The position numbers were made by a program, and so were the translations under genes. From positions 1-47,142 of IMG/VR virus record IMGVR_UViG_3300027790_000008: DNA of 47,142 bases. One strand, written 5' to 3'. This document shows positions 128-38,448 of the stretch, piece by piece (position 1 is the first letter of the stretch; each line of letters begins with the position of its first letter). Source of the DNA: a virus (taxonomy: Duplodnaviria > Caudoviricetes). The notes under the pieces are model-generated. The model ran no database searches. It saw nothing but the letters and a program-made list of their open reading frames with translations, and was not told the origin of the DNA.

Positions 128-3100
128 ATGAAAATTCAGGGACTTAACTCTGAAATCGCCGCGCTTCCTATCAACCCGGCTGCTAAGGCTGTGGGTGAAG
201 CAGAGACTTTCGGAGAGGGCTTTGACGCGGCTTTGGACGATCCTCTCGGGGTGTTGCGGACGTTTGGTCTTCGCAGTCTCCCGGCCTCTGCCCCCTCGAT
301 CGCTGGTGCCATAGCGGGGCAATTCCTTGGCGGTCCGATTGGCGCCGCCCTCATGTCAGGAGCGGCAGGCCACCAGACCGAAATGCAACTGGCAATGTCA
401 GACGGCATCATGCGGGAATTGGCTGATGCTGGCGTGGACGTGAAGTCGCCAGATGCAGTAGCCGCCTACTTGAACAGCAACGAGGCGGTTCTTGGCGACG
501 TGATCGAACGCGCTCTTGTTCGGGCCGGGGTTATCTCTGCCGCCGATGCCGCCACCGCAGGGATTGCCGGTAAGGTGGTTGCCTTGGCCCGCAACTCGGG
601 ACGCACCGCGCGGGCAGGAACCGCAGCCGCAGTCGGCACCACCATTGAGCCGATTGGAGAAATGGCGGGTGAGGCCGGGGCGCAGATCGCGTCCGGGGAA
701 AGCATCCAGCCTGGCGAGGTTCTGGCAGAAGGTATTGGCGGGGTCAGTCAAGGTGGTCCGACCGCTCTTGCTCAGACGGTTGCAGAAGGCGCCCGGAATG
801 CCCCCAAGGCACAGGCGTTCAAGGACTTCGCAAAGCAGATCGACCAGACGCTTGTGGCGCCCGCAACGCTTGGTGACGTCATTCAGCAACTATCGACGCC
901 GCAGGACACTCCTATTCCGCGCCCCGCGCCGCCCCAGCAACCGGTAGCGCCAGAGGCTGACGCGCCACCCGTGCCGGATCAACCCGTTGCGCCCGCCGTG
1001 TCCACGCAAAAGCAGGAGGAAGCCCCAGATGACGAAGCGTCGGCGCCTTTCGTACCGGAGCAAAATCAGCCACCGGAGAGTTCCGCACCAATACCGGATT
1101 GGGATGCGTCTGTTCGCGAGAACCCGACACTTCGCCTCAAGCGTCCGCTGACCCGCGCAATCATAGGTAAAAAAGGCATCAGGTGGCGGGAGGCATCCGG
1201 CCCGCGCAGGGGAGAGCTAACTCCGCTTGCAAGCGAATTTAAACACAGGGGCATCACGCCACAGACCTATCCGGGGATTTTCTCCCCGCGCGGCGCGGCT
1301 GATATTGACAATATCGTGTATTCCGAGGTTTTCGATACACCGGGCGTCCTGCCGGAAGAAAATGGGTACATTGATCGTGATGCGCTTATCGATGCTCTGG
1401 TTGGGGAAATCGAAGGGCGCCAGCCGTTCTTCACAAGGCAGTCAGATCGTCAGGCATACGAGGACTATAACCGGCAGCTTGCGGATGCTTACCGTACATA
1501 TCAGGCCGGCGAGGCCCCTTTAGATATTGTCATCCCCAACTTCTGGCGCTCCGAAATTGGGCGGAAAGAAGATGATTTTGGCGATTTCTTCGACGCGGAT
1601 TATGATCGCCAGTATGAAGTCCAGAAGGGAGTAGACGCCGCGCTGGCAGTCATCGACCCGGACCAGACATTGACGCCACATCACCGAAACGCGATGATCG
1701 CGGACATTTTCGAGAATGGCGGCGACTTCGAAGAAGCCGTACTACGGATGATGTTCGCGGAAATGCGCAGCATGGAGGAATCCCAGAATGCTACCCGAAC
1801 GCAGGAAACAGATGGCGGAATACAGGGCGAGAGCGCAGAAGGTGCTGGACAACCCGCAATCCAGCGCGGCGCAGAAAGCGTCGGCCCGTCGGGTAATCAG
1901 CCTGGCAACCGGGCTAGAGCAGGCACCAAGGAAGGCGGCGCAATCGACGTCACCGACGAAGGCGACCAGCAAGTAATTCCCGGCGCCGAAAAGATCACGG
2001 ACAAGGATCTCGCTCAACGAAAGATGGACGAACCCAAGCGGGGGGGCGATGCAGCACCGCCGGAAGGTGGTTTGTTCGATGACGACGAGCGAAACCAGAC
2101 CAGCCTGTTTGAAAGGGGTAACGATGTTCCAAGTGGAGATAGCGTACCTAAAGGAGAGCGGTCAGGTGACGGCGGGCGAAGCGTCGGATCTGAGCAAGAT
2201 GCTGAACAGCGAGGAAAGTCAGCAAGTCGAAAAGGGGGATCAACTGTTCGTCCCGATGCAACTTCTGATGCTGATGGTGGTGGCGCCGGAGAACAGACTT
2301 CCCTGCTAGATGCGGGGCGGATTGGCCGTCGCCCGCCCGGACGCCTTGGCCCGTCTTTCCTGAAATTCTCTTTCAACAACAGGACTTCCGTGTATCAGGC
2401 GGCGCTTGCGGATGCGGGCATTGACCCTGAAAAGGCGCGATTGATGCCGCCCGATCAGCAGACGCCGAAGATCGCCAAGATGATTGAGGACAAGTTTGGC
2501 GTGAAGGTCGAATTGCCGAAAATCAAGGTGAAGCGAAAGAACCGCTTTGGCCGCACCGTGGTCGAAAGTCGCACGTCAATTTCCAGCCGCGAGGCACTGG
2601 ACCAGCTTCTCGACGCCTATCAGAACATGACGATGCTGGCCTCTGTCATGGGTATCCCGGAATACGCCATTGGTCTGCCGATCGATGGCAAGGGCATCAC
2701 CCTGTCTCTGGTCTCGAAAAACGCGCTCCGGGGCGCGCTTGGCATGTTTTCGTGGGGCAGCAGTCGCAAGATTATCCTGCCGGGCCGATCCAACAGTTTC
2801 GCCCATGAGTGGGGCCATGCGCTTGATCACTACCTGAACAACATGGTGGACAACCCGACGTTCACGGACCTTCTGACGCAGAACATGGATAAGAAGGGTC
2901 TGGTCCAGCCGCTCTCCCCGCGCCGTCTGGTGACGGAGGCGTTTGCGCATGTCATGTGGTCGATGTTCGGTGACGGCATGACGGTCAACGCGCTCGTGTT
3001 GGAATTGCAGGTGCAGTCGGCAGAGTTGGGCGCGGATGGCAAACCGACGAAGAAAGCCAAGGACGCTCAGAGGCTTCTGACGGATATGCGGGAAGGGCGC

Positions 3101-6144: not shown

Positions 6145-6159
6145 TTGGTGTTTTTGGTG
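6145..6159 (+). promoter_or_regulatory. Phage-specific motif TTGGTGTTTTTGGTG upstream of virion gene 6196
   Basis: Exact 15-mer also at 22918, 36364 and 38434, always at or near a gene boundary just upstream of a gene start and followed by a -10-like hexamer. Confidence 0.7.
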
Positions 6160-12087: not shown

Positions 12088-12119
12088 GCCCCGCTGGCCC
12101 TATGGCTGGCGGGGCTTTT
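12088..12119 (+). terminator. Intrinsic terminator ending the late/lysis transcript
   Basis: GCCCCGCTGGCC-CTAT-GGCTGGCGGGGC followed by TTTT, between convergent genes. Confidence 0.75.
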
Positions 12120-12143: not shown

Positions 12144-12338
12144 TCAGTAGGTGAATTTTCGGGCGTGTTTCTTGCCGCCTTCAATCGCGTCCTCGACTGT
12201 CTGGCAATTCTCGACGCCGCCGAGGTTCTGCCGCGTCACGCCGCACGAAACGCGAGCCTGAAAGGGGCCGCTGTTTTTGCTGTCGAACACCTGAACCCGG
12301 ATGCCTTGTGATTGCAGTTCGTCGTAGTGGGTCGCCAT
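12144..12338 (-). CDS. Left-array cassette L8, hypothetical protein, 64 aa
   Basis: GAAAGGAAA RBS within the junction repeat. Confidence 0.7.
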   Translation of the reverse strand: MATHYDELQSQGIRVQVFDSKNSGPFQARVSCGVTRQNLGGVENCQTVEDAIEGGKKHARKFTY

Positions 12339-12362
12339 GTGTTTTCCTTTCGGTGGGGGTTT

Positions 12363-13295
12363 TTAGGATTGACTGTCTAGGGCGCGAACCGCGTCAATTG
12401 CGGCGGTCCAGCCAAGACGGAATGAATCGGCATTCTGCGAAGGCGTATCAACGGGAAGGCCGTGCTTTGCCAGCGCCTCCTTCAATGCGTCATGGTTGTA
12501 TGCGGGCTTGTCGTGCAGGCTCATGTTTTTGCCTTTCGGGGGTTTTGCCGCGAGCGGGGCTGGATAACCGTCATGCACGACGCCATCCAGTTCCCGGCCC
12601 TTGGCCTTGATTTCGCGTTGGTTGCGGCCTTCCCATTGCTTGAACAGGAAAGGCACATCGGCGGCGGCACACTGGTCGCGCAGGCTGCGAAACCAGTCAG
12701 GATCAACAGGACGATAGGCGCTACCGTTTTCGCCCCCGGTAATGACCCATTCCAGCCCGTCGATATGATGCGATAGATCGACCGGGCCAAGCAGCGGCTC
12801 CATACTCAAGAAGTGAACCACGGCAGGCACGGCAGTCAGGTGCGCCAGCCGGTCGGCTTCTTTCTGGCTTTCGACGGTCGCCCCTAGCCACACGTTCGGA
12901 TAACCGTTGCCCCAATCCTTGGGCAGATAGCGCGCGATGTTCTGCGGGCGCTTTGTCAGCATGAGGAAATCGAGGTTCGGGCACTGCCGGATCAAGGCCC
13001 ACAATTCATGCCGCCAAGCGGTCAAGATGCTCTTATGGTTGTCGAACACGTCAGCCAGTGAAGCTACAAACACACGCGGGCGCTCGGCAGCGCCTTGAGC
13101 CTGCTTATTCCATTTGATCGGGTTGCCCCATGTCTTTGTGCGCGTCCTCGCTGCATGTGGCCCCCAACGCTCACCGCCGAAGCGGTTATCCCAAGCCTCT
13201 GCATAGCAGTGATCGCAAGCTGCGCTGACCTTTGTGCAGCCGATCCATGGGTTGAACGTATGGGTGGTCCATTCGATGCCACTGTTCTCGGCCAT
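12363..13295 (-). CDS. Phage Gp37/Gp68 (DUF5131-type, radical-SAM-like) protein L6, fused in frame to a 53-aa cassette L7 (12363-12524)
   Basis: IEWTTHTFNPWIGCTKVSAACDHCYA, VFVASLADVF, LTKRPQN, SMEPLLG, WVITGGE, FLFKQW and GRELDG motifs. Confidence 0.9.
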   Translation of the reverse strand: MAENSGIEWTTHTFNPWIGCTKVSAACDHCYAEAWDNRFGGERWGPHAARTRTKTWGNPIKWNKQAQGAAERPRVFVASLADVFDNHKSILTAWRHELWALIRQCPNLDFLMLTKRPQNIARYLPKDWGNGYPNVWLGATVESQKEADRLAHLTAVPAVVHFLSMEPLLGPVDLSHHIDGLEWVITGGENGSAYRPVDPDWFRSLRDQCAAADVPFLFKQWEGRNQREIKAKGRELDGVVHDGYPAPLAAKPPKGKNMSLHDKPAYNHDALKEALAKHGLPVDTPSQNADSFRLGWTAAIDAVRALDSQS

Positions 13296-13321
13296 GTGGT
13301 GCCCTCCGGGGATTGTTGGAT

Positions 13322-13651
13322 TCAGGAAAATTCTTCGCTGGCCCACTCATGCCAGTCGAAATCACAGCCGCACGACCATTTGGTGAACCAGCCACCCTTG
13401 CTGTCTGGCAGGTCCCCCATATCGTGTGGGGTCTCGTGGCAGTTGGGACACTCTGGCATTGAGACCGTGACCACCGTTCCCGGCGGGAAGGTTCGCGCGG
13501 AGAGCATAAGCGTCCCCTCGCGCCCGACTGGCCCGTCTCCGTCCATGTCGCCCTCCGCCGAACCCATCCAGCGGGGCTCGTGCCGGTCGCAGTTGGGTCC
13601 GGCGTAAACGTCAGGCGCGTGGCGCGCTCTCATGGTTTCGCGTAGCTGCAT
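13322..13651 (-). CDS. Left-array cassette L5, hypothetical Zn-ribbon protein, 109 aa
   Basis: CPNC...CGC; GGAGG RBS in the junction. Confidence 0.75.
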   Translation of the reverse strand: MQLRETMRARHAPDVYAGPNCDRHEPRWMGSAEGDMDGDGPVGREGTLMLSARTFPPGTVVTVSMPECPNCHETPHDMGDLPDSKGGWFTKWSCGCDFDWHEWASEEFS

Positions 13652-13667
13652 AGTGCCTCCGGGGTTT

Positions 13668-13898
13668 TCAGGACTGTTTGGTTAGAACTGCCGCTGCGGT
13701 TTCGAGAATTTTCTCACAAGCGGGATGCTTTGGCGTCCACGCGGCATCGGCTGATACCCGGTTTAGGGCGCTCTCTAGTTCGCGGATGCGAGCGTTGGCC
13801 ACGTCTGCGCGGACGTATTCGGTATAGCCTGATCGGCTGGGCTTGCGTCTAACCCAGTGATCGAGGTTGGCCCATATCCGCTCTGGTGTCTCTGACAT
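13668..13898 (-). CDS. Left-array cassette L4, hypothetical protein, 76 aa
   Basis: MSETPERIW...TEYVRAD motif common in small phage proteins; GGAGG RBS. Confidence 0.75.
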   Translation of the reverse strand: MSETPERIWANLDHWVRRKPSRSGYTEYVRADVANARIRELESALNRVSADAAWTPKHPACEKILETAAAVLTKQS

Positions 13899-13911
13899 AT
13901 CGGCCTCCGGG

Positions 13912-14163
13912 CTAGTTGGATTCAGCAGTTCCGTTTCTGACTTCATGCCATTCTACGGCTGTATCTGGCGTTTCGGCAGCTATCCAGTGGGTTCCGGCCC
14001 ATGCCTCAACATCGACGGGCAATCCGGCCATCGACCGATCAGCAAATTGGAAATGCCCGCCCGCACCGTACAAGGAATATCCTGTGTCCCATATCGCCAT
14101 TTGGACGCCAGCGACCCCCTTCAACTTGACGTAACAAATTTGCATGTCTTTTGGCGTTTTCAT
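13912..14163 (-). CDS. Left-array cassette L3, hypothetical protein, 83 aa
   Basis: ATG at 14163 after the junction RBS; ends ESN* inside the next junction. Confidence 0.7.
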   Translation of the reverse strand: MKTPKDMQICYVKLKGVAGVQMAIWDTGYSLYGAGGHFQFADRSMAGLPVDVEAWAGTHWIAAETPDTAVEWHEVRNGTAESN

Positions 14164-14180
14164 TCTAGGTGCCTCCGGGG

Positions 14181-14582
14181 TTAGTTGGATTCGGGTTTCG
14201 ACGGGATGTATTCTTGGTTCCGGCTGGCCTTGAATTGGAACCCGGTGAAAGTCAGGCCATGCTTGTCCTGCCACGCGTCCATTGTCTCGCGCACCATCTT
14301 TTCAAGGTCGGCGCGGAGTTCCGGTTTGATCGGAAAGATTTCGACGTCTCCCTCGGGGTCGCCGTGATCCTCGTAGGCGCGTTCTTCGGCTTCCTCTGCG
14401 AACATGTGGCCGTCAAAGTATCGGCTTATCTTGATATTGGCTGGCTTCATCGCCTCAACAATGTGGCCGCCGTCCTGTTCTTCGGATGCGATGTAGACCG
14501 CTTCCTCTCTGGTTTCGCATTCGGTGTGGTAGCGTTCATCGTCGTGGCCGACCCACCATTTCCAGTTCTCTTGTTCGCTCAT
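14181..14582 (-). CDS. Left-array cassette L2, acidic hypothetical protein, 133 aa
   Basis: GGAGG RBS; ends ESN* inside the junction. Confidence 0.8.
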   Translation of the reverse strand: MSEQENWKWWVGHDDERYHTECETREEAVYIASEEQDGGHIVEAMKPANIKISRYFDGHMFAEEAEERAYEDHGDPEGDVEIFPIKPELRADLEKMVRETMDAWQDKHGLTFTGFQFKASRNQEYIPSKPESN

Positions 14583-14603
14583 GTGGTATTCCTCCGGGGG
14601 TTT

Positions 14604-14951
14604 TTAGGACTGGTTCGCCAAGCGCAGCAAAGCGTCCGCATGGCAGGGTTTGTCGAGCGGGCACCAGCAAGCGAGGTCTTTGCCCGCCAACTCGTGCAGG
14701 CTTCGCCGAATAACTACCCGCTTTGCCGCCATGCTCTCACGGGTTTGCCCTTGTGGGATGCCCCAATCTTCGCCGCGCATCCACCCCGAGAAAGCGTCAA
14801 CGGCAGCCCCGCGCCCGTCTCCATAGCCAATCTCGGCGGCGGCGCGAAAGTCGAACGGGTTCCCCCACTTGCTAGGCCGCGCCACAATCACAGCGTCAGG
14901 GTGGTCTTTGCGCCACGGCTTCTGGCGGGTCATTTGAATGCGCTTTGGCAT
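14604..14951 (-). CDS. Left-array cassette L1, DUF4326-type protein, 115 aa
   Basis: VARPSKWGNPF...LAGKDLACWCPLDKPCHADALLRLAN signature. Confidence 0.85.
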   Translation of the reverse strand: MPKRIQMTRQKPWRKDHPDAVIVARPSKWGNPFDFRAAAEIGYGDGRGAAVDAFSGWMRGEDWGIPQGQTRESMAAKRVVIRRSLHELAGKDLACWCPLDKPCHADALLRLANQS

Positions 14952-15002
14952 GGTGCCTCCGGGGTAGTTGGATTGCGGCGCGGCATTGCGCCCTTGCACA
15001 CT

Positions 15003-15054
15003 AAATTACACCAGAAATTGGCGTATTGCAACCGCCAAGTTTTGGCGTTATGGT
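15003..15054. promoter_or_regulatory. Symmetric divergent sigma70-type promoters sharing a palindromic -35 TTGCAA
   Basis: TTGCAA at 15026-15031; 17 bp to TATGGT (15049-15054) rightward and 17 bp to TAATTT (complement of 15003-15008) leftward; TTGGCG/CGCCAA inverted repeats in the spacers. Confidence 0.7.
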
Positions 15055-15060
15055 GGCTGC

Positions 15061-15222
15061 ATGACATGGCAAGATTACCTCAGCAATAAAGAGCGCGCGG
15101 AACTTGAGCGGGCAGAGCGCAAGCGCGACGACGCGCGAGCGGAGTACAACGCTCTTAGGGTGAAGCTGAAAAGCCGCGCGGACAATCGCCGCAGGAAGGA
15201 GCGCGCCAGTGAAAAGGACTAG
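15061..15222 (+). CDS. Small basic coiled-coil protein, 53 aa, probably leaderless
   Basis: MTWQDYLSNKERAELERAE...; ATG 6 nt after the -10 box; no RBS. Confidence 0.65.
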   Translation: MTWQDYLSNKERAELERAERKRDDARAEYNALRVKLKSRADNRRRKERASEKD

Positions 15223-15772
15223 CCTCTATCGCCATTTTGACGCGAGCGGTAAGCTGCTCTATGTCGGCATCTCGGCCAGCTTCATGGCGAGGCTATGCCA
15301 GCATTCGTCCACGTCGCATTGGTATTGGCGTATCGCCAAGGTCGAGGTCGAGCATTTCAAGACGCGCGCTCATGCGCAGTATGCCGAAGCCTTGGCGATC
15401 CGCGATGAAGGGCCGCTTTACAACAAAGCGAAGCCAGTCCCTCGCAATCCTGACATTCCGATACCTAAGCTGGTGATGCCTCCCCCTGCGCCTGTCGTGC
15501 CTGACACACCGCGCAAGATCGGCTATATCTGCGCGGAAAGCCGGTTCGTGGGGCCGCAGTCGGTAGGCTTGCGTCATGTCGGTGTACCGGACGCCCTGAC
15601 CTTCGTTGACGTGCTTGAAGAAGTGGGCGACGAGCGCCCGATGCTCATTCGCATGGCAAAGACAGCGCAACATGCCGGAACGGAGGTCTATCACCTTCAT
15701 AGCTCCGCGATCCCGCAGGACTTGCGGGCTATCTTGGAGGGCCGTGGCGTGGTTATCAAATGCGCCGCCTAA
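15209..15772 (+). CDS. GIY-YIG nuclease-family domain fused to a degenerate resolvase-like domain, 187 aa
   Basis: SLYRHF...LLYVGIS...RLCQH...E..AI..E.PLYN; Pro-rich linker; KIGY...RPML...RGV C-terminal domain. Confidence 0.7.
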   Translation: MKRTSLYRHFDASGKLLYVGISASFMARLCQHSSTSHWYWRIAKVEVEHFKTRAHAQYAEALAIRDEGPLYNKAKPVPRNPDIPIPKLVMPPPAPVVPDTPRKIGYICAESRFVGPQSVGLRHVGVPDALTFVDVLEEVGDERPMLIRMAKTAQHAGTEVYHLHSSAIPQDLRAILEGRGVVIKCAA

Positions 15773-15845
15773 GCGAGTTCGCCCGGCGGCGAAACAATTT
15801 CAACGCTGCGCGTTCGCGCGGCAGGGTCTAAACAGGAGCGAGATT

Positions 15846-16070
15846 ATGGCGGGTTATGCGATCAGGTCAGTTTGCCCGTGCGGGTGGTGGTGCACGCCTG
15901 CCTTCGGTTCAGAGTTTTTTTCCCGCACCGACTTTCCGGTCTGCCCAAAATGCGGTGCTCCTGCGCGCGATCGGGAGCTTGTGTCAGCTCGCATCGTAAA
16001 GGTTGAGGGCCGCCCATGGTGGCGGTTTCCAGAATGGCGCCTCGAGCTGGCGCCGAGTGAATCCAGATAG
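15846..16070 (+). CDS. Right-array cassette R1, Zn-ribbon protein, 74 aa
   Basis: CPCG...CPKCG; AGGAG RBS; ends ESR* in the junction. Confidence 0.75.
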   Translation: MAGYAIRSVCPCGWWCTPAFGSEFFSRTDFPVCPKCGAPARDRELVSARIVKVEGRPWWRFPEWRLELAPSESR

Positions 16071-16080
16071 GAGCGAGGCG

Positions 16081-16173
16081 ATGCCAGTACCGAACCTGCA
16101 ACCGGGCGAATTCATTTGCCGCCACTGCTTCTTGCGGCGGCGGTTCGGGCCGGAAATCGAAATAGATTTTTGA
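16081..16173 (+). CDS. Right-array cassette R2, 30-aa peptide MPVPNLQPGEFICRHCFLRRRFGPEIEIDF
   Basis: Read by eye, below the ORF-track cutoff; fills the space between two junctions exactly. Confidence 0.65.
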   Translation: MPVPNLQPGEFICRHCFLRRRFGPEIEIDF

Positions 16174-16192
16174 TCCAGAAAAGGAGCAAGGC

Positions 16193-16429
16193 ATGGCGAA
16201 ATACCAAGGCGGATTGACAGAAGCCCCGGCAATTGGCGCGTATCTGCCGCAGCATTCGGACGGTCCCGCGCGGACGCCATGCCCTAGCTGCGACGGCATT
16301 GCGATTGTCGTTTGGCGACCGGGCGGTGCTTTTCAGCAGCGGACAGAATGCGCTTGCGGGCGAAAAACACGTTGGGTGATGTGCGGCCATGATGCTGAGC
16401 CTGATACAACCGACGACGAATCCAGATAG
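16193..16429 (+). CDS. Right-array cassette R3, Zn-ribbon protein, 78 aa
   Basis: CPSC...CACG; ends ESR* in the junction. Confidence 0.75.
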   Translation: MAKYQGGLTEAPAIGAYLPQHSDGPARTPCPSCDGIAIVVWRPGGAFQQRTECACGRKTRWVMCGHDAEPDTTDDESR

Positions 16430-16440
16430 GAGAGCAAGGT

Positions 16441-16590
16441 ATGGTTTGGGGAAAGTCAAAAGAGAATGTGATGCGTATTCTGCCGCGGGGCTTGCGGGGC
16501 AACGTGCGAGGCAAGTTTCTCTGCAAGGGGCATGACGCGCTTTACTGGCGCACTCGCTGGACCGAAGTCCGGCTTATGAAGTTTTGGTAG
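16441..16590 (+). CDS. Right-array cassette R4, basic 49-aa protein (MVWGKSKENVMRILPRG...MKFW)
   Basis: Read by eye; runs from junction to junction. Confidence 0.65.
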   Translation: MVWGKSKENVMRILPRGLRGNVRGKFLCKGHDALYWRTRWTEVRLMKFW

Positions 16591-16608
16591 TCTGAATAGG
16601 AGCGCGAC

Positions 16609-16860
16609 ATGGCTGAAACAGTGGAAATTGACATGCCCAAGGATGCGGCGGTGCGCGTTATGTGCCAAGACCTGCACAAGATGCGTGAAGGGCTGGCCGC
16701 GATGGGGCTGCACGCGCACATTCTCGATCAGGTGAGCGACAAGCTGAAAGAGCAGGCGCGTCAGATTGAGCATCACAGAGCGGATCGCGCCTACATCATC
16801 GGCCACAATGACGGGTGGGATGCGGCAATGGCTACCGGGCTTGCGGGCGACGTGGAATAG
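16609..16860 (+). CDS. Right-array cassette R5, hypothetical protein, 83 aa
   Basis: AGGAG RBS; stop TAG is part of the next junction. Confidence 0.75.
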   Translation: MAETVEIDMPKDAAVRVMCQDLHKMREGLAAMGLHAHILDQVSDKLKEQARQIEHHRADRAYIIGHNDGWDAAMATGLAGDVE

Positions 16861-16870
16861 GAGCGAGGTC

Positions 16871-17107
16871 ATGGACGATTTGAGGCCGGGCGCTGGTCTG
16901 CCAGAAATTGAGTTTCTGCCGATCCAATGCCCCAAGTGCGGGCGCACAGCGAATAGCGCGAGGGATGATCTAGACCCTCCGTCGGCAGTTCGTGCAGAGA
17001 TTTTATGCCCCGATTGCGTCGGTGGCGACTTCGGGACCACGACATATTTCGACGCGGAGGGCAGGGAGTTGGTGCCCGGTCCTGACGGAAGCGAAGAACC
17101 CAAATAG
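16871..17107 (+). CDS. Right-array cassette R6, Zn-finger protein, 78 aa
   Basis: CPKC...CPDC; stop TAG in the junction. Confidence 0.75.
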   Translation: MDDLRPGAGLPEIEFLPIQCPKCGRTANSARDDLDPPSAVRAEILCPDCVGGDFGTTTYFDAEGRELVPGPDGSEEPK

Positions 17108-17147
17108 GAGAAAACTATGCCAGAAATTCAAGCACCAAACACACCAC

Positions 17148-18254
17148 TTAGATCCCGCGCTGATCCACGACGCTCAAGAGTTCGTCCATCGTGTGATGGC
17201 GGTACACCCGCAGGATTGTCCGGGCGTCGGTGGCCGTCAACTTGGCGACGGTCTCGATCGCAACGCCCCGCCGCAACATGAGGGTAATGGCCGTGTGCTT
17301 CATGACGTGCGGCGTGACCCATCCATAGCCAATGTCCCGCATGAACGTGTCGAAGGCCGACGCAGACCGCATCCCGCAGACCCGCTTGCCCCGGCCTCGG
17401 ATCAAAAAGGCTTCTTCCAGATCGGCCCGGATGCCGACGGTCATAGGAACCACGGGACGCCGCTTTCTGGATACAACCTTATCCGGCGGGTTGAAGTCGA
17501 TCTTCCCGGTGATGAAATCAACCTGCGGCCCGAACCGAAGATCCAGAAGGACGCCTTTCCGCGCGCCATAGGCCAGCCCCATTTTCGTGAACAGGCGGAC
17601 CCCCAGAGGCGCATCCGGCAGGCGGGCGATAATCTCCCGCTCCTGCTGTTCGGTTAGCCAGGTATCCCGCCCTTGCCCGTCAGAAGGCTTCTCAAACCGA
17701 TAGACGGGTTTGCCGCGGATCATTCCCTTGCGGCTCCCGAAGTTCAGGACAGCTTGCAGGGCGGTAATCTCCCTGCGGATCGTCGCGGGCTTGACTGCGC
17801 GTTCTCCGTGGCTCCCAGCGGCTCTACGGCGCGCGTAAGCGTCAACGTCCTGATCCCGGACCGCCACAGCCGCCGTCTTGCCAAAAGCTGCCAGCGGGGC
17901 GCGCATGTTCTGCCTGTCGGACTTTTCATTCCCGCGGCGCCGTGAGTGCATGTAGATGTACGCCTCGAAGACGTCGGCAACCGTCTTGTCGTCAAAGTCG
18001 TCGTCGGCATTGCGCACCGTCAAGAAGCGGGCCAACGCGGCCTCTGCCTTATCGCGGCTTCCAGTTTTGGTGCTTTTGCGCTTGGACCGCCACCCGCCGC
18101 CTTGGTTTTCAGACCACCGGATTTCGTAATATCCGAATGAGTTGGGTTCGTCGCTCAGATGCGGGAAGGTTCTCATGACGTGTACGGCTCTATCAGGTCG
18201 ATGATTTGAGAGGCGACGGACAGGGGCGGGCATCGGTGCTTCTTCACTGGTCAT
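17148..18254 (-). CDS. int: Tyrosine recombinase / phage integrase (start codon uncertain)
   Basis: Arm-binding-like N-terminus (YEIRW...RKSTKT), core-binding KPATIRREITALQAVLN, catalytic YGAR, PHVMKHT and VYRH. Confidence 0.88.
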   Translation of the reverse strand: MTSEEAPMPAPVRRLSNHRPDRAVHVMRTFPHLSDEPNSFGYYEIRWSENQGGGWRSKRKSTKTGSRDKAEAALARFLTVRNADDDFDDKTVADVFEAYIYMHSRRRGNEKSDRQNMRAPLAAFGKTAAVAVRDQDVDAYARRRAAGSHGERAVKPATIRREITALQAVLNFGSRKGMIRGKPVYRFEKPSDGQGRDTWLTEQQEREIIARLPDAPLGVRLFTKMGLAYGARKGVLLDLRFGPQVDFITGKIDFNPPDKVVSRKRRPVVPMTVGIRADLEEAFLIRGRGKRVCGMRSASAFDTFMRDIGYGWVTPHVMKHTAITLMLRRGVAIETVAKLTATDARTILRVYRHHTMDELLSVVDQRGI

Positions 18255-18457
18255 TCCGTTTCCTCTCTCTCAATCAGTATCCCCGTGATCGGCACCTTGC
18301 CCACCATGACAGTCGCCCGTCGTGGGCCGTAGTCGCACCGGCAATAGAGCGGGGCCATCTGGCGTATCTTCGGGCAGTCGGGGCACAGCCCGTCCGGTCG
18401 TGTGACAAGTTCGCCCTGTGCGCTGCTGTGCGGGCCTGTTTTGACGGTTGCAATCAT
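18251..18457 (-). CDS. Small hypothetical protein with Cys motifs, 68 aa
   Basis: ATGA-coupled to both neighbours. Confidence 0.55.
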   Translation of the reverse strand: MIATVKTGPHSSAQGELVTRPDGLCPDCPKIRQMAPLYCRCDYGPRRATVMVGKVPITGILIEREETE

Positions 18458-18846
18458 ACGAACTCCGCATCCGGGATGACCATGATCCCTTCTTCAAGCA
18501 GCATGGCGTGGGTCTCTCGGAGGGCGTGAATCATCCGCTCCAAGACTGCCGCCTCGTAGTTGAGGACAACAAATTCGTGCCGCTTCTTATCGACCCCTGC
18601 CATGATGTCGTGACAATGCTTGCATCCGAACATCACCAGCATGTCGGTCGGCTTAGTGCTTGTGCCTTTGCCACCCGCGGCCCCCATGTTGTCCGGGTGG
18701 CATCCGACTGTCGTGTCCGGGCCGGAACATGTGTAACCAGGATAGAAAGAACTGATCCGCAACGTGCACGGCATACCAGCGGCGGCCGCCATGATCTGTT
18801 CGGAGCGCACCTTGGGAAGCATGTGTGGGCGGTAGTTGTTGATCAT
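18454..18846 (-). CDS. DUF1364/YbcO-like His-Me finger nuclease-domain protein
   Basis: PCTLRI...C...TTVGCH...G.STKPTD...GCKHCH. Confidence 0.75.
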   Translation of the reverse strand: MINNYRPHMLPKVRSEQIMAAAAGMPCTLRISSFYPGYTCSGPDTTVGCHPDNMGAAGGKGTSTKPTDMLVMFGCKHCHDIMAGVDKKRHEFVVLNYEAAVLERMIHALRETHAMLLEEGIMVIPDAEFV

Positions 18847-19079
18847 GTCCGCGCCTTCATCAGTACGCCCTTAATGGCTGCCTCTCTAAAAGCCCGTCGT
18901 CCAAGCCGCATCGCATAAATCGCTCGGTGTAATTCGATACCGAGGATTTGGGCTACCTGATGCTCGGACATTTTGTCTCTCGCGGCTTTAGTCAAAAAAT
19001 CATCCAACTCAACCGGATCAAAGTTCCCGTAGACAGTCAGGCTTGGTTTCTTGGGGGCGGATGTACGCATGAGACTCAT
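18843..19079 (-). CDS. Small protein, possible HTH, 78 aa
   Basis: ATGA-coupled start at 19079; MSEHQVAQILGIELHRAIY HTH-like segment. Confidence 0.55.
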   Translation of the reverse strand: MSLMRTSAPKKPSLTVYGNFDPVELDDFLTKAARDKMSEHQVAQILGIELHRAIYAMRLGRRAFREAAIKGVLMKART

Positions 19080-19411
19080 GTCACCGCCCCGCCAAGTCCG
19101 CAGTAGCCTTCCTTGCGCTCGATGCCATAGCCTTCGGGGTTCCGCACGATCCGCTGCACCGCCTTGTTGTGAAAGCCGACAACCGCCTTCTCCTTGCCGG
19201 TGCGCTCCTTGTGCTGTTCCGCCAGGGAATACATTTCCCGCTTGATTGCGGCCGAGAACTCGGGATCTGTGGCGAGCCGCGGCTTCCATCGCCAGACCGG
19301 GCAGGCATCGCCCATGCAGTTCGGGCCTTTCTTGTCGGCAAATGTCCGGGCCAGCGGACAGGGCATGGTTTCACGGGCCTGCGCCACGGAAAGATAGAGG
19401 GTATCAGTCAT
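19076..19411 (-). CDS. Hypothetical Cys-rich phage protein, 111 aa
   Basis: CPL...CMGDACPVWRW...GYCGLGG motif. Confidence 0.75.
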   Translation of the reverse strand: MTDTLYLSVAQARETMPCPLARTFADKKGPNCMGDACPVWRWKPRLATDPEFSAAIKREMYSLAEQHKERTGKEKAVVGFHNKAVQRIVRNPEGYGIERKEGYCGLGGAVT

Positions 19412-20417
19412 CGGCCTTCTCCTTCGCGAATTTCATGGATTGATCCCAGCCGCCAAGCCATTGCCCGGCCATGACGTGATCGTTGTGCGGGCATTCCGTG
19501 CGGGGTGTTCCGGCCTGCTGTGCCTTCGCGCCATCGGTGAACAGATCGTCCATCGGCGTTGCGTCGGACGTGTCGATTTCATCCGTCCAGTGGCCTCCAT
19601 CCGCGTCGAGGATTTCGCCATCGACCACCTTGGGTTCGTCGGCCTGCGCTTCCTTGAGTTTCTGAGCGAGGTTCTTTTGCGGCTCCGGGGTAATGTCCTT
19701 GATAGGGGCGCTGTCCTGCTCGACCATCACCCGGCGCATGTCTTCGGCGGACAGGTCCAGACGCTTGCAGAGGCGACGGATCACCGTCTTCTTCCACATT
19801 TCGTCCGTCCATTGCTGCCAGATGCCGTTCGGGTTTTCGTGCTTGCGCTGCTGGGGGGAAGACCGACGTATCTTCTCGATCTGGTCGCGGTCCATGAACT
19901 CCCGAACGATTGTTCCGTCCTTGAGTTTCGCGATTGCATAGGCGGCAACCGCACCGCCCTTCTCGCCAAAAAGGATCGGCTTGTGGATCAGGGTTTCATT
20001 GTCGCCCACCACATATTCAAACCGTCCGTCATCCAGTTCCCCTTGATAAACAATGTGCGCCCGAATGTCGGACACATCACCCGAGCGGCGGGCCATCTTG
20101 ATAAGGCCGAACACCATTGGCATTGCCTGGGCGACCTTACCTTCCTTGGTGAAGAACGGCACAATTGCCGCCTCCCGGCCATCCGGCACCAGCCCTGCGG
20201 CGGCAATGGTGCGGATCGACTTCATGACTGTCGCCGGGTTGCAATTCAGGATTTCAGGATTGTCCTGCACCGCCACAACGGCTGCGTTCCGAAACGCCTC
20301 CACTGTCACGTTCGACGGCAGGGCGAGTTCCTTCCGGTCGATCAGCGCGTTAAGATCCTGCTTGAATGCCACGATCGGTTTGACGGCGGTCTTCTTTGTG
20401 GTTGCTACCTCGTTCAT
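19404..20417 (-). CDS. recT: RecT-family ssDNA annealing protein with C-terminal RMF-like extension
   Basis: GLVPDGREAAIVPF, GLIKMARRSG, AYAIAKLKDG, W...DEMWKKTVIRRLCK. Confidence 0.92.
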   Translation of the reverse strand: MNEVATTKKTAVKPIVAFKQDLNALIDRKELALPSNVTVEAFRNAAVVAVQDNPEILNCNPATVMKSIRTIAAAGLVPDGREAAIVPFFTKEGKVAQAMPMVFGLIKMARRSGDVSDIRAHIVYQGELDDGRFEYVVGDNETLIHKPILFGEKGGAVAAYAIAKLKDGTIVREFMDRDQIEKIRRSSPQQRKHENPNGIWQQWTDEMWKKTVIRRLCKRLDLSAEDMRRVMVEQDSAPIKDITPEPQKNLAQKLKEAQADEPKVVDGEILDADGGHWTDEIDTSDATPMDDLFTDGAKAQQAGTPRTECPHNDHVMAGQWLGGWDQSMKFAKEKADD

Positions 20418-20420
20418 GTC

Positions 20421-21401
20421 TTACTCCAAGTTCGGCAAAAGTCCGTGCTTCTGCATCTGTTCAAATCGCTTCTGCATACTGTCCGGGTATTGGTAGGCAA
20501 TCGGGTCAGGAGCCACGCCAGGCCACTCCCCCGTGTCGAGCCCGTGCTTCATCCTGTCCAAGCCCTGACGGATCAAAACCCGCGCCCAATAGATGCTCAC
20601 AGGGTCAATCTCTATCGGCACAACCTCGAAAGGCGCGGACGTCTGCACGAACACAAGCGCGCACCGCTCTGCCGTGGTCCCGAAGACAACTTCTGCGCCC
20701 ATGACCGCCAGCGCCATTTGCAGCGGATAGCCGAAGTCCGTGACAGACCTTTGCGCGGAGATAATCAGATCTCGCGATTTCGGGGCAAAGGTTTTCAGAT
20801 CCCCGAAGTCAACGCCATTCGACGGAATGCAGTCCGGGCGGGATTTGATCCATATGCCCGTGATCGGATCTTGCCAGACCATGCTGATTTCGATCAGGTC
20901 GGACGTCAGAACCTCGACGGCAAAAGTGTTCTCCCGAAGGTTCTCACCCATGCGCATAATCTTCTCGACCTGTTCTTCTTTCAGGAGCAAGCGACCGGCG
21001 GCGTTGGCGTCGAACTCTGCCCACCATTCCGCACCTTTTGCGGCAGCATCCGACCATACACCGTCCCGCTCAAAGGCTTTCACCTGTACTGCGGTCGGGC
21101 GGCGGGGCGCATCCTTCGGCACATAGACAAAGTGTTCGTCAAATACCTCGTCACCGAGGATCAGCGCATGAGCGGCCCGGCCAAGGATCAGACTGTCGGA
21201 CGGTTCCTTTTCGGGGTAGCGATCCGGGTTCAGATCAGACGTTTTCCAGAACGCATGAGGGCTTTGCAGGGCCAGAAGCCGAATACCCGTTGAACTGACA
21301 GAAGGCCCATCGCAGCATTGGCTGTGATACCAAGACATGCTCATGCGATAGGCGCCGGGTTCGGTGATGATTTCGCCGTCTGCAATCTCGCGAATGTTCA
21401 T
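20421..21401 (-). CDS. Exonuclease VIII-like PD-(D/E)XK nuclease (RecE partner, DUF3799-type)
   Basis: GRAAHALIL, EISMVW, KSRPD, DLKT and YPLQMA; immediately upstream of recT. Confidence 0.88.
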   Translation of the reverse strand: MNIREIADGEIITEPGAYRMSMSWYHSQCCDGPSVSSTGIRLLALQSPHAFWKTSDLNPDRYPEKEPSDSLILGRAAHALILGDEVFDEHFVYVPKDAPRRPTAVQVKAFERDGVWSDAAAKGAEWWAEFDANAAGRLLLKEEQVEKIMRMGENLRENTFAVEVLTSDLIEISMVWQDPITGIWIKSRPDCIPSNGVDFGDLKTFAPKSRDLIISAQRSVTDFGYPLQMALAVMGAEVVFGTTAERCALVFVQTSAPFEVVPIEIDPVSIYWARVLIRQGLDRMKHGLDTGEWPGVAPDPIAYQYPDSMQKRFEQMQKHGLLPNLE

Positions 21402-22917: not shown

Positions 22918-22932
22918 TTGGTGTTTTTGGTG
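22918..22932 (+). promoter_or_regulatory. TTGGTGTTTTTGGTG motif upstream of the tandem-HTH regulator
   Basis: Exact copy, within the AT-rich divergent intergenic region 22631-22945. Confidence 0.7.
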
Positions 22933-24058: not shown

Positions 24059-24579
24059 AGATCGTCGCGCTTGATATTGCGACACAAACCGGTGTTGCCG
24101 TTGGAGATTCCGGCGGCAACCCGAAGTCCTGGTCTGTGGATTTGGGAAAGTCGCTGTCACAGGCGCGGCGGCTTTCCGAAGTTCTCAGGTTGACTCAGGA
24201 GCTTATCGAAACACATGCCCCGGATTTCGTCGCTCTGGAAGCGGCCATCGGGGGCAGGAATGCGAGTGCCTACCTGATCAAGCTGGTTGGCTGCGTCGAG
24301 GCGGTTTGTGCCAATCGCGGGGTGCCGTGCGAGGCGTTTCACAGCGGGTCGATCCGCAAGCACTTCTTGGGCAAGGCATATACCGCGCGAGACTTCCCGC
24401 ATTTCAAGGTTGCCGCCGCCAAGAAGGCGATCAAGGGGCTGGTCATGGACCGGTGCCGCCTGCTGGGCTGGGACGTCGAGGATGACAACGCCGCCGATGC
24501 CTGTGCGCTCTGGGACTATGTGTGCGCAAACCGGGCGCGCGGGTATCAGGCAAGACCTGTGGGGGGGCTGTTCAAGTGA
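24055..24579 (+). CDS. RuvC-like Holliday junction resolvase
   Basis: IVALDIATQTGVA, VALE and DDNAADACALW RNase H-fold acidic residues. Confidence 0.8.
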   Translation: MKIVALDIATQTGVAVGDSGGNPKSWSVDLGKSLSQARRLSEVLRLTQELIETHAPDFVALEAAIGGRNASAYLIKLVGCVEAVCANRGVPCEAFHSGSIRKHFLGKAYTARDFPHFKVAAAKKAIKGLVMDRCRLLGWDVEDDNAADACALWDYVCANRARGYQARPVGGLFK

Positions 24580-25652
24580 TCGGCCTGACCCTCTGTTCCG
24601 GCATTGGTGCGCCCGAGGTCGCGGCCCCGTGGGTTGCATGGCGGTTTGCGTCGGAAATAGATCCGTTCCCGCGCGAGGTTCTGCATCAGCGACACGGATA
24701 CAGTCTGCCGGAAGATCACAACCAAGGCGATCCGCTCTTGTGGGACGACATGACCGAAGTGACGCCGGAACTTTTACGAAACCAAGGCATTCCGCTGCCT
24801 GATCTGATCGTCGCCGGAACACCCTGTCAGGCGTTCTCGATCGCGGGTCTGCGGCAAGGCGTGAAAGATGATCGCGGCAACCTTACCCTGAAATTTGTGG
24901 AGATTGTTCATGCAATCCAATCTGTTCGACCTGATGGGCGACTCGCCGTCGTATGGGAAAACGTGCCCGGAATCCTCTCGGACAAAGAAAACGCCTTTGG
25001 GTGCTTCCTGGGAGGACTTGTCGGCGCAATGGATGCCCTACAGCCGCCAGGAGACGGAAGCTGGCCCGGTGAAGGTATGGTGCAGGGGCCAAGGGCACGG
25101 GCTGCATGGTCCGTTCTTGACGCGCAATGGTTCGGAGTGGCGCAGCGGCGCCGTCGCGTGTTCGTTGTCGTCGATTTTGGAAACTGTGTCGATCCCGCAG
25201 CGGTATTACTTGAGCCAGACAGCTTGCGCGGGGATACTCCGCCGCGCCGAGAAACGGGGCAAGGCGTTGCCGCAGATGTTGCACCAAGCCTTGTCGGCAG
25301 CGGTCGAGGGGTAGAGCGAGCGGGTGACACCCGCGGGCAGGATCCGGTTGTTGCAGATTGGCCGGCGTCGGTGCCACCGACGCTCAACGCTCACTTTGGC
25401 GACAAGATGGGCCTTGAGAACCAACATGCGCTTTCGGGGGGGGGGCTGTTCGTTCCCGGAAGTGTCGATGTGCCTCAATGCCGGTGCGATGGGGAGACAG
25501 GACGCGGAGACCGAGACGCTAATTCCCGTAAGCGGAGGCGTCTTCGATGTTGCTCACTCACTACGTGGCGAAGGCTTCGACGCGAGCGAGGATGGAACCG
25601 GGAGGGGAACACCATTGGTGCCCGTTGCAATCCAAGAGCGCGCGGTCAGTGA
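24576..25652 (+). CDS. C5-cytosine DNA methyltransferase, N-terminal frame (motifs I-VIII); true protein sequence ends near the G10 tract at ~25445
   Basis: LCSGIGA (I), GTPCQAFS (IV), ENVPG (VI), QRRRRVF (VIII); GTG start overlaps the RuvC stop. Confidence 0.9.
   Translation: MIGLTLCSGIGAPEVAAPWVAWRFASEIDPFPREVLHQRHGYSLPEDHNQGDPLLWDDMTEVTPELLRNQGIPLPDLIVAGTPCQAFSIAGLRQGVKDDRGNLTLKFVEIVHAIQSVRPDGRLAVVWENVPGILSDKENAFGCFLGGLVGAMDALQPPGDGSWPGEGMVQGPRARAAWSVLDAQWFGVAQRRRRVFVVVDFGNCVDPAAVLLEPDSLRGDTPPRRETGQGVAADVAPSLVGSGRGVERAGDTRGQDPVVADWPASVPPTLNAHFGDKMGLENQHALSGGGLFVPGSVDVPQCRCDGETGRGDRDANSRKRRRLRCCSLTTWRRLRRERGWNREGNTIGARCNPRARGQ
24910..25314 (+). CDS. Overprinted +1-frame ORF, M.EcoHK31I beta-polypeptide-like, 134 aa
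   Basis: GGAGA RBS 6 nt before ATG; CSLSSILE...PQRYYLSQTACAGILRRAEKRGKALP motif. Confidence 0.65.
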   Translation: MQSNLFDLMGDSPSYGKTCPESSRTKKTPLGASWEDLSAQWMPYSRQETEAGPVKVWCRGQGHGLHGPFLTRNGSEWRSGAVACSLSSILETVSIPQRYYLSQTACAGILRRAEKRGKALPQMLHQALSAAVEG

Positions 25653-26349
25653 AAATCCAGCGTCGGGACCGCAGGGCAAGGGGTTTCAGGAAGATGTGGC
25701 CTATACTCTTGAGGCACGCAACAAGGTTCAAGCCGTGGCTTTCGCTGAGAACAGCCGTGGAGAGCTGCGCCTGCAAGGCGGTGACGGGCAGGTTGCGCCC
25801 CAGCTGACAACAGGTGGCGGCAAGCCCGGTCAAGGTCAGCCGTGCGTTGCATTCGATTGCAAAGGCACGGAGGTCCAATACACCGAAGACGGCTCTCACC
25901 CGACGCTTCGCAGTATGGGACACCTCTCAAGCCACCAAAATGCGGGCGGTCATGCAGCGGTGGCGTTTGGTTTATCGACTTCCGTGACGCCCAAGTATGG
26001 AGAAGAGGTTCAGCCTACCATTACGGTCCCAAGTCCAAGCGGCGGCGGGCAGCCTCCAGCTGTAGCTACTCCGTGGGCAGTTCGCCGCCTCACACCTCGC
26101 GAATGCGAGCGCCTGCAAGGCTTCCCCGATGATCACACATTGATCCCCAGAGATCGCAAGCGCGTGCTCAAGGATATGGAAGACGAGGTGCAATACCTGC
26201 TCTCCGAATATCCCGACATGACACCAGAAGAGGCGATCATGCTGGCAGCGGATGGCCCGCGCTACAAGGCGCTCGGCAACAGTATGGCCGTGCCTGTCAT
26301 GCGCTGGATTCTGGACCGGGTTCGCATCAGTTGGGAGCAAAACAAGTGA
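25324..26349 (+). CDS. C5-cytosine DNA methyltransferase, C-terminal frame (TRD-like repeats and terminal motifs)
   Basis: VAHSLR, VAYTLEAR and HPTLRS repeats; RRLTPRECERLQGFPD and RYKALGNSMAVPVM. Confidence 0.85.
   Translation: MTPAGRIRLLQIGRRRCHRRSTLTLATRWALRTNMRFRGGGCSFPEVSMCLNAGAMGRQDAETETLIPVSGGVFDVAHSLRGEGFDASEDGTGRGTPLVPVAIQERAVSENPASGPQGKGFQEDVAYTLEARNKVQAVAFAENSRGELRLQGGDGQVAPQLTTGGGKPGQGQPCVAFDCKGTEVQYTEDGSHPTLRSMGHLSSHQNAGGHAAVAFGLSTSVTPKYGEEVQPTITVPSPSGGGQPPAVATPWAVRRLTPRECERLQGFPDDHTLIPRDRKRVLKDMEDEVQYLLSEYPDMTPEEAIMLAADGPRYKALGNSMAVPVMRWILDRVRISWEQNK
25436..25445 (+). repeat. G10 homopolymer at the MTase frame switch
   Basis: CTTTC-GGGGGGGGGG-CTGTTC; losing one nucleotide fuses the two MTase frames. 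Confidence 0.85.
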
Positions 26350-31938: not shown

Positions 31939-31953
31939 CACCAAAACCACCAA
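31939..31953 (-). promoter_or_regulatory. TTGGTGGTTTTGGTG motif (1 mismatch) upstream of the leftward operon
   Basis: Followed on the minus strand by AATATTCT (-10-like). Confidence 0.55.
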
Positions 31954-32028
31954 AATCAAGAAAGATCACGACAAAAGATGAAATAAAAGCGACAAAGACA
32001 CCAAAACCGCCACCCGCTACAATGAGGT

Positions 32029-33000: not shown

Positions 33001-33186
33001 GTTACAACCTGTGGGGTGTCTGTGGCGTGGTATTTTGGTGTCTTTTGGGTTTTGGTGGTCAACCTGTGGGTGAATTATGTTGTGTTTGGTGTTGTGGTTT
33101 TTCCTGAATTATTGAGTGTTTATGGTGTTGGTGATTGTGGTGTGAAGGCGATTGGTGGATTTGTTGTAATGTGGTAGTTAGGTGTC

Positions 33187-36363: not shown

Positions 36364-36378
36364 TTGGTGTTTTTGGTG
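36364..36378 (+). promoter_or_regulatory. TTGGTGTTTTTGGTG motif upstream of the portal gene
   Basis: Exact copy followed by TAGCAT. Confidence 0.7.
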
Positions 36379-38433: not shown

Positions 38434-38448
38434 TTGGTGTTTTTGGTG
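38434..38448 (+). promoter_or_regulatory. TTGGTGTTTTTGGTG motif upstream of scaffold/capsid genes
   Basis: Exact copy followed by TATAGAT. Confidence 0.7.

Follow-up and report, generated by a model that had tools for sequence, protein, structure and literature searches.

How phages gain and reshuffle tiny accessory genes, by way of dedicated linkers or by illegitimate recombination, is an old question that is raised again by a 47,142-nucleotide (nt) virus record (Duplodnaviria; Caudoviricetes; IMGVR_UViG_3300027790_000008, positions 1 to 47,142; hereafter the window, that is, the whole stretch of DNA that was analyzed). Between 15825 and 17110, in what we call the right array, seven short junctions (J1 to J7) tile six small open reading frames (ORFs); each junction is built on a 10-nt core, RRTCYARMWA, and GGAG. 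A preliminary description, made from the sequence alone, read these ORFs as cassettes, and comparative genomics agrees: the region varies among relatives, and the joins fall at the junctions. Cassettes bounded by junctions are gained, lost, duplicated, and reordered; ORF3, ORF5, and ORF6 have other neighbors elsewhere, with the joins at or beside a junction; and one clade of resolvases is linked to the junction. The window array is real, and we regard it as a variant of modular shuffling by linkers, set apart by its tie to a recombinase.

Cassettes are joined at the junctions

Our comparison with sequencing runs covers the assembled contigs of 4 of the 20 runs that contain window sequence, small-share runs being set aside. 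A 2,674-nt contig (X3 record 12) has 0 differences from the window over 16597–17140, that is, over ORF5 and ORF6, and is unrelated on both sides; its break falls at 16597, the T of TAGGAG in J5, and ORF5 and ORF6 are kept together across the eroded J6. Record 12 diverges past 17140, and an integrase-side contig (X3 record 9) begins at 17132, an overlap of 9 nt. Record 9 comes from a close relative (33 differences in 1,043 nt and 38 in 1,124 nt in the two flanks) that has 914 nt where the window has 4,589 nt between them; no part of the right array aligned with it at 85% likeness. In X2, an RNA run whose contigs are silent on transcription, the right array is nearly unchanged, in pieces, and the left array (the divergent array of the window; Table 1) is different.

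Other loci, designated here by L numbers, hold relatives of single cassettes. The ORF6 relative in L071 (83% identical in amino acids (aa) and 80% in nucleotides, over 16856–17113) is the first cassette there, with other neighbors and another head module; the ORF5 relative in L240 (82% aa, 85% nt) stands directly behind an intact resolvase. Both match from junction to junction. Differences by codon position are 14/5/27 for ORF6 (27 of 46 in the third position) and 10/6/24 for ORF5 (24 of 40). L246 and L274 carry relatives of ORF3 (65% aa and 75% over 51 aa, respectively), in both cases after a left-type junction. L316 shares with the window the spacer, the 53-aa gene, and the head gene (15020–15273 is 74% identical) and then continues with five junctions and four unrelated cassettes.

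Rearrangements within arrays are also seen. A 638-nt unit occurs in both L242 and L243, at 99.7% identity and in a different order, and the switch lies inside AAAGGAG; of the natural loci, these two are best suited to testing for an active system. Their arrays (L242 6647–10446; L243 6647–8521) consist of larger, lower-GC cassettes (0.52 vs 0.63 for the resolvase) with a repeated non-coding unit of ~230 nt that has hairpins and no Rfam match. Cassettes duplicated within one array at 96–100% identity occur in L076 (9997–11123), L082 (8517–11002), L132 (862–3617), and L221 (8080–9706; here the duplication lies beside a run of N, and an assembly effect is possible). In L222 (G014:C15) the right array is empty: the resolvase stop is followed by one full junction with no gene behind it.

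Anatomy of the right array

All seven junctions named in the preliminary description are present, each leading an ATG (15846, 16081, 16193, 16441, 16609, 16871, and 17117; Table 1). The 16-mer of its title is exact only at J2, however, and J6 has lost its core. The stops are as it described, with four genes ending on the junction TAG (last residues ESR, ESR, DVE, and EPK) and two right before the core (TGA 16171–16173 and TAG 16588–16590). The two missed ORFs that it predicted, of 30 and 49 aa, both fill their slots, and the longer, ORF4, has relatives; for ORF2 we found none, with zero hits in the protein collection and zero tblastn matches in 277 loci. DNA matches to ORF2 in L275 and L277 proved to be antisense chance matches inside other genes.

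Table 1. Features of the two divergent arrays of the window and of their surroundings.
Feature	Position	Strand	Basis or remarks
Left array, 7 genes	12144..14974	-	junction = common core + (A)CCCC + GGAGG; hairpin terminator 12088-12115
Spacer between divergent arrays	14975..15060	.	CGCCAA/TTGGCG repeats
53-aa helical protein	15061..15222	+	relatives at equivalent place: L316 73%, L240 45%, L076 43%
Head gene, GIY-YIG + serine recombinase fragment	15209..15772	+	homology
J1 GGTCTAAACAGGAG	15825..15838	+	pattern + matrix
ORF1, 74 aa	15846..16070	+	two CxxC-type pairs; C-terminus ESR, then stop
J2 AATCCAGATAGGAG	16060..16073	+	pattern
ORF2, 30 aa, predicted	16081..16173	+	one CxxC; fills slot exactly
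J3 GATCCAGAAAAGGAG, one base longer	16172..16186	+	pattern + matrix
ORF3, 78 aa	16193..16429	+	Zn-ribbon-like; C-terminus ESR, then stop
J4 AATCCAGATAGGAG	16419..16432	+	pattern
ORF4, 49 aa	16441..16590	+	basic/aromatic; 3 protein clusters at 77-90% identity
J5 AGTCTGAATAGGAG	16589..16602	+	left break point of block common to another phage
ORF5, 83 aa	16609..16860	+	helical
J6, eroded core, TAGGAG remaining	16850..16863	+	45th of 46 in matrix ranking
ORF6, 78 aa	16871..17107	+	double CxxC
J7 AACCCAAATAGGAG, final array junction	17097..17110	+	pattern
ORF7 remnant, 8 codons	17117..17140	+	contig comparison, X3 records 12 and 9
Tyrosine integrase	17148..18254	-	PHROG 1/216, PF00589; convergent on right array
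RecT-like annealing protein + exonuclease VIII	19404..21401	-	PHROG 148 and 412

The preliminary description also counted CxxC motifs in four of the six products, which is correct (ORF1, ORF2, ORF3, and ORF6). Zn fingers are not what defines the arrays: 28 loci contain 152 junction-led genes in 131 families (median 79 aa), and 35 of the 152 have CxxC. ORF1 belongs to a 90% cluster of 8 proteins, 7 of which end in SESR or SES (one extends beyond SESK); a scan of viral contigs with ORF1 gave one weak match, which was unrelated. The 54-aa ORF past J7 is the 8-codon remnant reading on into the integrase antisense.

The spacer between the arrays likely holds overlapping divergent promoters with an operator (its CGCCAA/TTGGCG repeats); a sigma-70 scan found zero sites in it (14975–15060). 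The 53-aa protein is likely the autoregulator of the platform; in other platforms a ribbon-helix-helix-like gene occupies its position. A promoter/terminator scan made zero calls within 15870–17000, the right-array junctions (14–15 nt) form no hairpin, and an Rfam search of the window and L242 gave zero matches. Hairpins at 15773–15824 were considered and dropped; folding was no better than that of shuffles (z −0.07).

Two junction types share one core

With 2 mismatches allowed, RRTCCARATAGGAG has 6 matches in the window genome against 1.12 expected, and 1 of 100 shuffles reaches 6. The count alone is modest evidence, to which the clustering of 5 of the 6 matches inside the 1.3-kb right array adds. 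In leave-one-out scoring, 5 of the 7 junctions lie above every non-array site, J6 is outscored by 1 site, and J3 by 9. We also ranked the 46 GGAG-led ATG ORFs of the window with a core matrix made from 140 junctions of other loci, themselves found with a window-seeded matrix: the top 11 are all array genes (5 right, 6 left), J1 is 14th, and J6 is 45th. Well-led genes elsewhere in the genome lack the core.

The right junction is RRTCYARMWA+GGAG, and the left junction is the same core followed by (A)CCCC and GGAGG (39 and 37 sites). Among 99 adjacent junction pairs, 53 are left-left, 45 right-right, and 1 mixed. The claim of the preliminary description that the two classes are not interchangeable thus stands as far as 98 of 99 pairs keep one type, and fails in that the core is common, ORF3 has relatives behind left-type junctions, L149 has both types within one run, and L138 joins a left-like core to a right tail; the classes are strongly preferred, yet unsealed.

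In 61 of the 99 pairs the stop codon of the upstream gene has its last base at core position 11, and the junction-borne GGAG lies 6–8 nt upstream of the ATG. The core is also kept where no protein is read through it: in 24 cases the upstream gene stops at or before the core start, and the core persists at the gene-less array ends of L071, L074, L085, and L222 and before and around the non-coding units of L242. Its conservation therefore acts on nucleic acid. The core-to-GGAG distance varies (10–12 nt in right junctions, 13–20 nt in left), and registers 11 and 12 mix (30 of 45 neighbors alike vs 25.3 by shuffling, p 0.10), so a model with a cut at a fixed register is unsupported. No second half-site is conserved at the junctions, and the flank past GGAG is not inverted.

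Among 401 family genomes, the right pattern occurs in 82, nearly always as a single match, and of 15 regions examined only those in G211 and G014 are arrays; the left pattern occurs in 24 (27 sites; reversed control 9). L330 carries an eight-junction left-type array (1107–3050, minus strand) near a stand-alone GIY-YIG gene. Two other ideas were discarded. An origin from attC was considered because left cores contain RYYYAAC; neither a hairpin nor a second box accompanies them, and the motif is absent from right cores. A GANTC methylation site does not fit, the base preceding the core often being C or T. An exact 15-mer scan of viral contigs gave 68 single matches, none window-related by blastn, which is chance level.

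A serine recombinase clade is linked to the junction

The gene at the head of the right array, whose resolvase origin is absent from the preliminary description, encodes a fusion of a GIY-YIG domain with a small serine recombinase fragment that lacks the helix-turn-helix (HTH) domain. The part encoded from 15503 onward shares 40% identity (36/90, E 3e-14) with the intact PF00239 resolvase that heads the L074 array. The catalytic set of small serine recombinases is Y6, R8, S10, D36, R68, and R71 (PMC2794168); in the fragment GYICAES replaces GYARVST, R8/S10 and the DR..R motif are missing, and the sequence ends before helix E. Judged by these residues, the fragment is catalytically dead. A direct Pfam search with the window fragment and six dead heads gave zero matches, and in the tree the fragment falls on the array-linked side, on a long branch. 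The head gene has 11 near-full-length relatives; among 59 loci found with the GIY-YIG fusion family, 2 of 2 full-length matches head right-type arrays, and an array is present at 1 of the 57 loci with GIY-YIG only. A second dead family, without a Pfam match, stands at the head of six other arrays; its model (pLDDT 71, 6 sequences) has Tn3 and gamma-delta resolvase as its best matches (E 1e-4 to 1e-3).

For the intact clade, a junction is found at the resolvase stop codon in 13 of 13 close members (58–91% identity) vs 1 of 19 distant ones. The loci in this count were picked by resolvase similarity alone, with the query's own locus excluded and L272 replacing L249, whose sequence runs out at the stop codon. 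Independent cases are fewer, since L243 is a near copy of L244 and a single clade makes up 13 of the 18 distant rows. Upstream of the resolvase, core copies number 20 vs 2.2 expected in 14 close loci (two of which were first found through junctions) and 6 vs 2.9 in 19 distant loci. They recur near −135 and −122 on one strand and near −92 and −79 on the opposite one, a layout of two left and two right copies spaced 13 nt apart, and in L250 and L222 the outer copy is also the first left junction. The window's own spacer has no core copy. All 14 close rows keep GYARVST and K[LM]DR[LM]GR; the intact clade is full length, with the GRP arm and the C-terminal domain.

The intact clade is present in only 3 of 401 family genomes searched at E 1e-60, no resolvase lies in the examined flanks of arrays L073, L076, L078, L082, and L086, and the intact resolvase has no match in phages (E 1e-30) or plasmids (E 1e-55).

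How cassettes may be exchanged

We favor cassette exchange by short-homology recombination at the junctions, to which we give about an even chance. The array would be a series of mini-gene cassettes open to exchange, each closed by a 14–15-nt junction that carries the Shine-Dalgarno sequence of the next gene and mostly the stop of its own, and phages would swap whole cassettes by recombination through this short homology; the array would be expressed as one operon from the divergent promoter, with translational coupling. The platform was likely founded by a small serine recombinase, the dead remnant of which heads the window array. The core may have been a binding half-site of this recombinase, at first an operator in its own promoter and then copied with each cassette; once widespread, the junction could persist as a common homology patch for RecT-type annealing even with a dead recombinase. 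RecE/RecT are encoded 2–4 kb from the right array, and the RecT-like protein and exonuclease VIII are the candidate machinery, putatively acting at the junction. The cassettes themselves would be accessory genes for host interaction, as their small size, their place behind an autoregulated promoter, and their turnover suggest.

Short homology is preferred because near-identical cassettes are shared or duplicated where the head is dead or no resolvase is seen (the window, L076, L221), because core-to-GGAG spacing and registers are variable, and because there is no second half-site and RecE/RecT is nearby. Homology rather than a fixed cut is also indicated because some left-array pairs switch at the ATG and 98 of 99 neighbors keep one type. 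Several points weigh on the other side. The cleanest break points share only 6–7 nt (TAGGAG, AAAGGAG), which is short for annealing proteins; against a clean junction rule, the left arrays of the window and L076 switch at the ATG, as do both copies in L132, and their spacers differ; junction conservation is partly built in because the junctions were found by matrix; the intact clade keeps GYARVST and D-R..GR, which would ask for a substrate; mosaicism at gene boundaries also arises without linkers; the RecT candidate comes from the window phage; and the contigs showed no recombination product, circle, or transcript.

The retained catalytic residues lead to a less probable, though serious, alternative: the junction would be a recombination half-site at which cassettes are cut out and put in by the small serine recombinase linked to it, in a system analogous to the integron. 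Its most specific form, which we hold equally tentatively, is that in temperate roseobacter phages the resolvase clade binds the core, represses its own divergent promoter, and captures, excises, and reorders small genes at single-half-site junctions that serve at once as stop codon and ribosome-binding site, with the arrays kept apart by their crossover dinucleotides and the window array frozen behind its dead enzyme. The stop-codon junctions of the close members and the enrichment of cores in the resolvase promoter fit this proposal, as do the empty array of L222 and the exact reordering in L242/L243, all with an intact gene. The core also resembles the Gin half-site, which reads TCCA AAA CC on the lower strand of the gix core (PMC3985619, Table 1); right junctions would then be cut at GA and left ones at CC, which would explain class purity. 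The missing second half-site, the variable register, the switches at ATG, the near copies and single clade that reduce the counts, and the presence of the intact clade in only 3 of the 401 family genomes speak against it, and small serine recombinases normally resolve or invert, without integrating. For the window phage, with its dead copy, the proposal would require service in trans or a frozen array that now moves in blocks. It is unlikely that the junction is a translation signal only, that is, a start-associated sequence with a coupled stop and a strong Shine-Dalgarno sequence, perhaps bound by an RNA-binding factor of phage or host, and that the mosaic comes from ordinary illegitimate recombination with selection for intact expressed genes. 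The GGAG spacing and the 61 stops at +11 are what such a signal predicts, and the start-associated sequence (SAS) of mycobacteriophages has a similar GGGATAGGAGCCC 3–7 bp before non-structural genes (PMC3203893); yet junctions persist gene-less and around non-coding units, the core recurs on both strands of promoter DNA, well-led genes elsewhere in the window do without it, and the resolvase link is left unexplained. Very improbable, finally, is a C-terminal peptide signal such as a degron, in which the conserved ends ESR, ESK, QSN, and QSK would be selected and the DNA repeat a by-product: 61 of 99 upstream genes do read through the core to a stop at +11, but 24 cores are non-coding yet conserved, and the serine codon of the core is nearly always TCC or TCT, whereas AGC and TCG lead inside genes (a bias that is partly built in by the search). 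On balance we retain short-homology exchange.

Relation to known systems

The closest mechanism is that of the PeSL cassettes of the T4-type phages RB49 and phi1 (PMC2839356), together with Botstein-Campbell linkers, in which repeats between non-essential ORFans likewise mark insertion, deletion, and replacement; homologous recombination was proposed for PeSL, and the integron comparison was made (Arbiol et al. 2010, PMC2839356). A PeSL is a promoter plus a terminator hairpin that isolates each gene, whereas the junction here is a 14–20-nt stop/Shine-Dalgarno element inside a continuous run of genes. The present system also differs in that its two arrays diverge, a clade of serine recombinases is linked to it, and it is spread over temperate phages whose backbones are not alike. 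The closest sequence is the SAS of cluster K mycobacteriophages, a short asymmetric AGGAG repeat before the ATG of small non-structural genes that often contains the upstream stop; its letters, GATAGGAGC, are nearly those of the junction (PMC3203893). Like the SAS, the junction is conserved beyond the part that pairs with 16S. The sections of PMC3203893 used for comparison describe the SAS as acting in translation initiation, with no part in exchange, and place its copies along a genome arm; in the compact array described here, by contrast, a junction marks every boundary, exchange is observed, and a recombinase promoter carries further copies of the core.

The junction array works like an integron array but is not one. 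Integrons consist of IntI, attI, and arrays of attC cassettes, the attC sites being hairpins of ~60–140 nt after each gene. The likeness lies in a recombinase gene and promoter at the head, cassettes made of a gene and its trailing site, reordering, duplication, gene-less cassettes, and empty arrays. Unlike integrons, the present system has no IntI (the sole tyrosine recombinase is the phage integrase) and no attC hairpin, and its site has 14–20 nt; there is no room for attC because the stops overlap or abut the next Shine-Dalgarno sequence. At the head stands a serine-family enzyme, which is dead in the window phage and whose catalysis of exchange is putative. With Tn3/gamma-delta res and the Gin/Hin gix/hix systems the platform shares the PF00239 fold and the gix-like half-site (PMC3985619). 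The layout of cores in the resolvase promoter recalls Tn3 res, where resolvase binding between divergent genes autoregulates both (PMC7157771). Serine recombinase crossover sites have two inverted half-sites around a fixed 2-bp core, whereas each junction has one gix-like half; no transposase or invertible segment lies in the examined flanks; and the window copy, unlike small serine recombinases, is without the catalytic serine and the HTH. A full-text search of open-licence papers and bioRxiv, judged from result lists and abstract openings, found no description of a resolvase-linked junction array.

Cassette products and use of the platform

None of the six right-array ORFs matches PADLOC, PHROGs, or Pfam above cut-off (0/6), and of 115 cassette proteins from other loci 25 have any PHROG and 3 a named function. 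In the ESM Atlas, ORF3 and ORF6 fall in unnamed small clusters at 0.92–0.94, with no structure match at a TM score of 0.5. The junction can also be used as a gene finder: its 131 families in 28 loci, mostly unannotated, are a library to screen for host-takeover or counter-defence proteins. The platform is defined and portable, its 14-nt junction being common to phages with different backbones; a candidate enzyme is at hand, and cultured hosts can be named (Salipiger, Brevirhabdus, Phaeobacter, and Marinibacterium), so that the mechanism is testable with plasmids. Should the resolvase prove to cut, this would be a gene-capture system outside the integron family with an unusual minimal-site recombinase.

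Phage, host, and neighboring regions

As a virus record the window is complete, and it has direct terminal repeats. It encodes a terminase, a portal, a major head protein, an internal virion protein, an endolysin, DnaB, RuvC, RecE/RecT, and a tyrosine integrase, and is accordingly the genome of a temperate phage. Its host is likely a roseobacter: one left-array gene is 99% identical to a gene of a Brevirhabdus locus and two are 79–81% identical to Salipiger genes, from junction to junction. The runs that hold most of the window are from marine or ballast water. Used as a search handle, the integrase found 1 distant viral locus and none in genome contigs, and a search of cultured phages with window genes matched only the DUF5131 gene. 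This DUF5131 (gp37/gp68) gene of the left array (12363–13295, minus strand) matches the PADLOC candidate defence models PDC-M41B and PDC-M30B (E 1e-58).

Past the integrase start lies a second variable region (18230–19303), in which contigs of the runs X2, X3, and X4 have other sequence in place of 18265–18506 and 18747–19303, here without a junction. DNA methyltransferase matches at 24522–26349 fall in two overlapping frames, indicating either a frameshifted gene or two adjacent genes. A further motif, TGGTGTNTTTGGTG, has 18 matches in the window at ≤2 mismatches vs 0.84 expected, 5 of them exact. It is possibly a phage promoter or regulator site; its copies lie mostly 20–50 nt upstream of structural or regulatory genes, with sites at 6146–6159, 22919–22932, 36365–36378, and 38435–38448, near 31939–32012 and 33036–33166, and at 17133–17146 (minus strand), the place where the array joined the integrase side.

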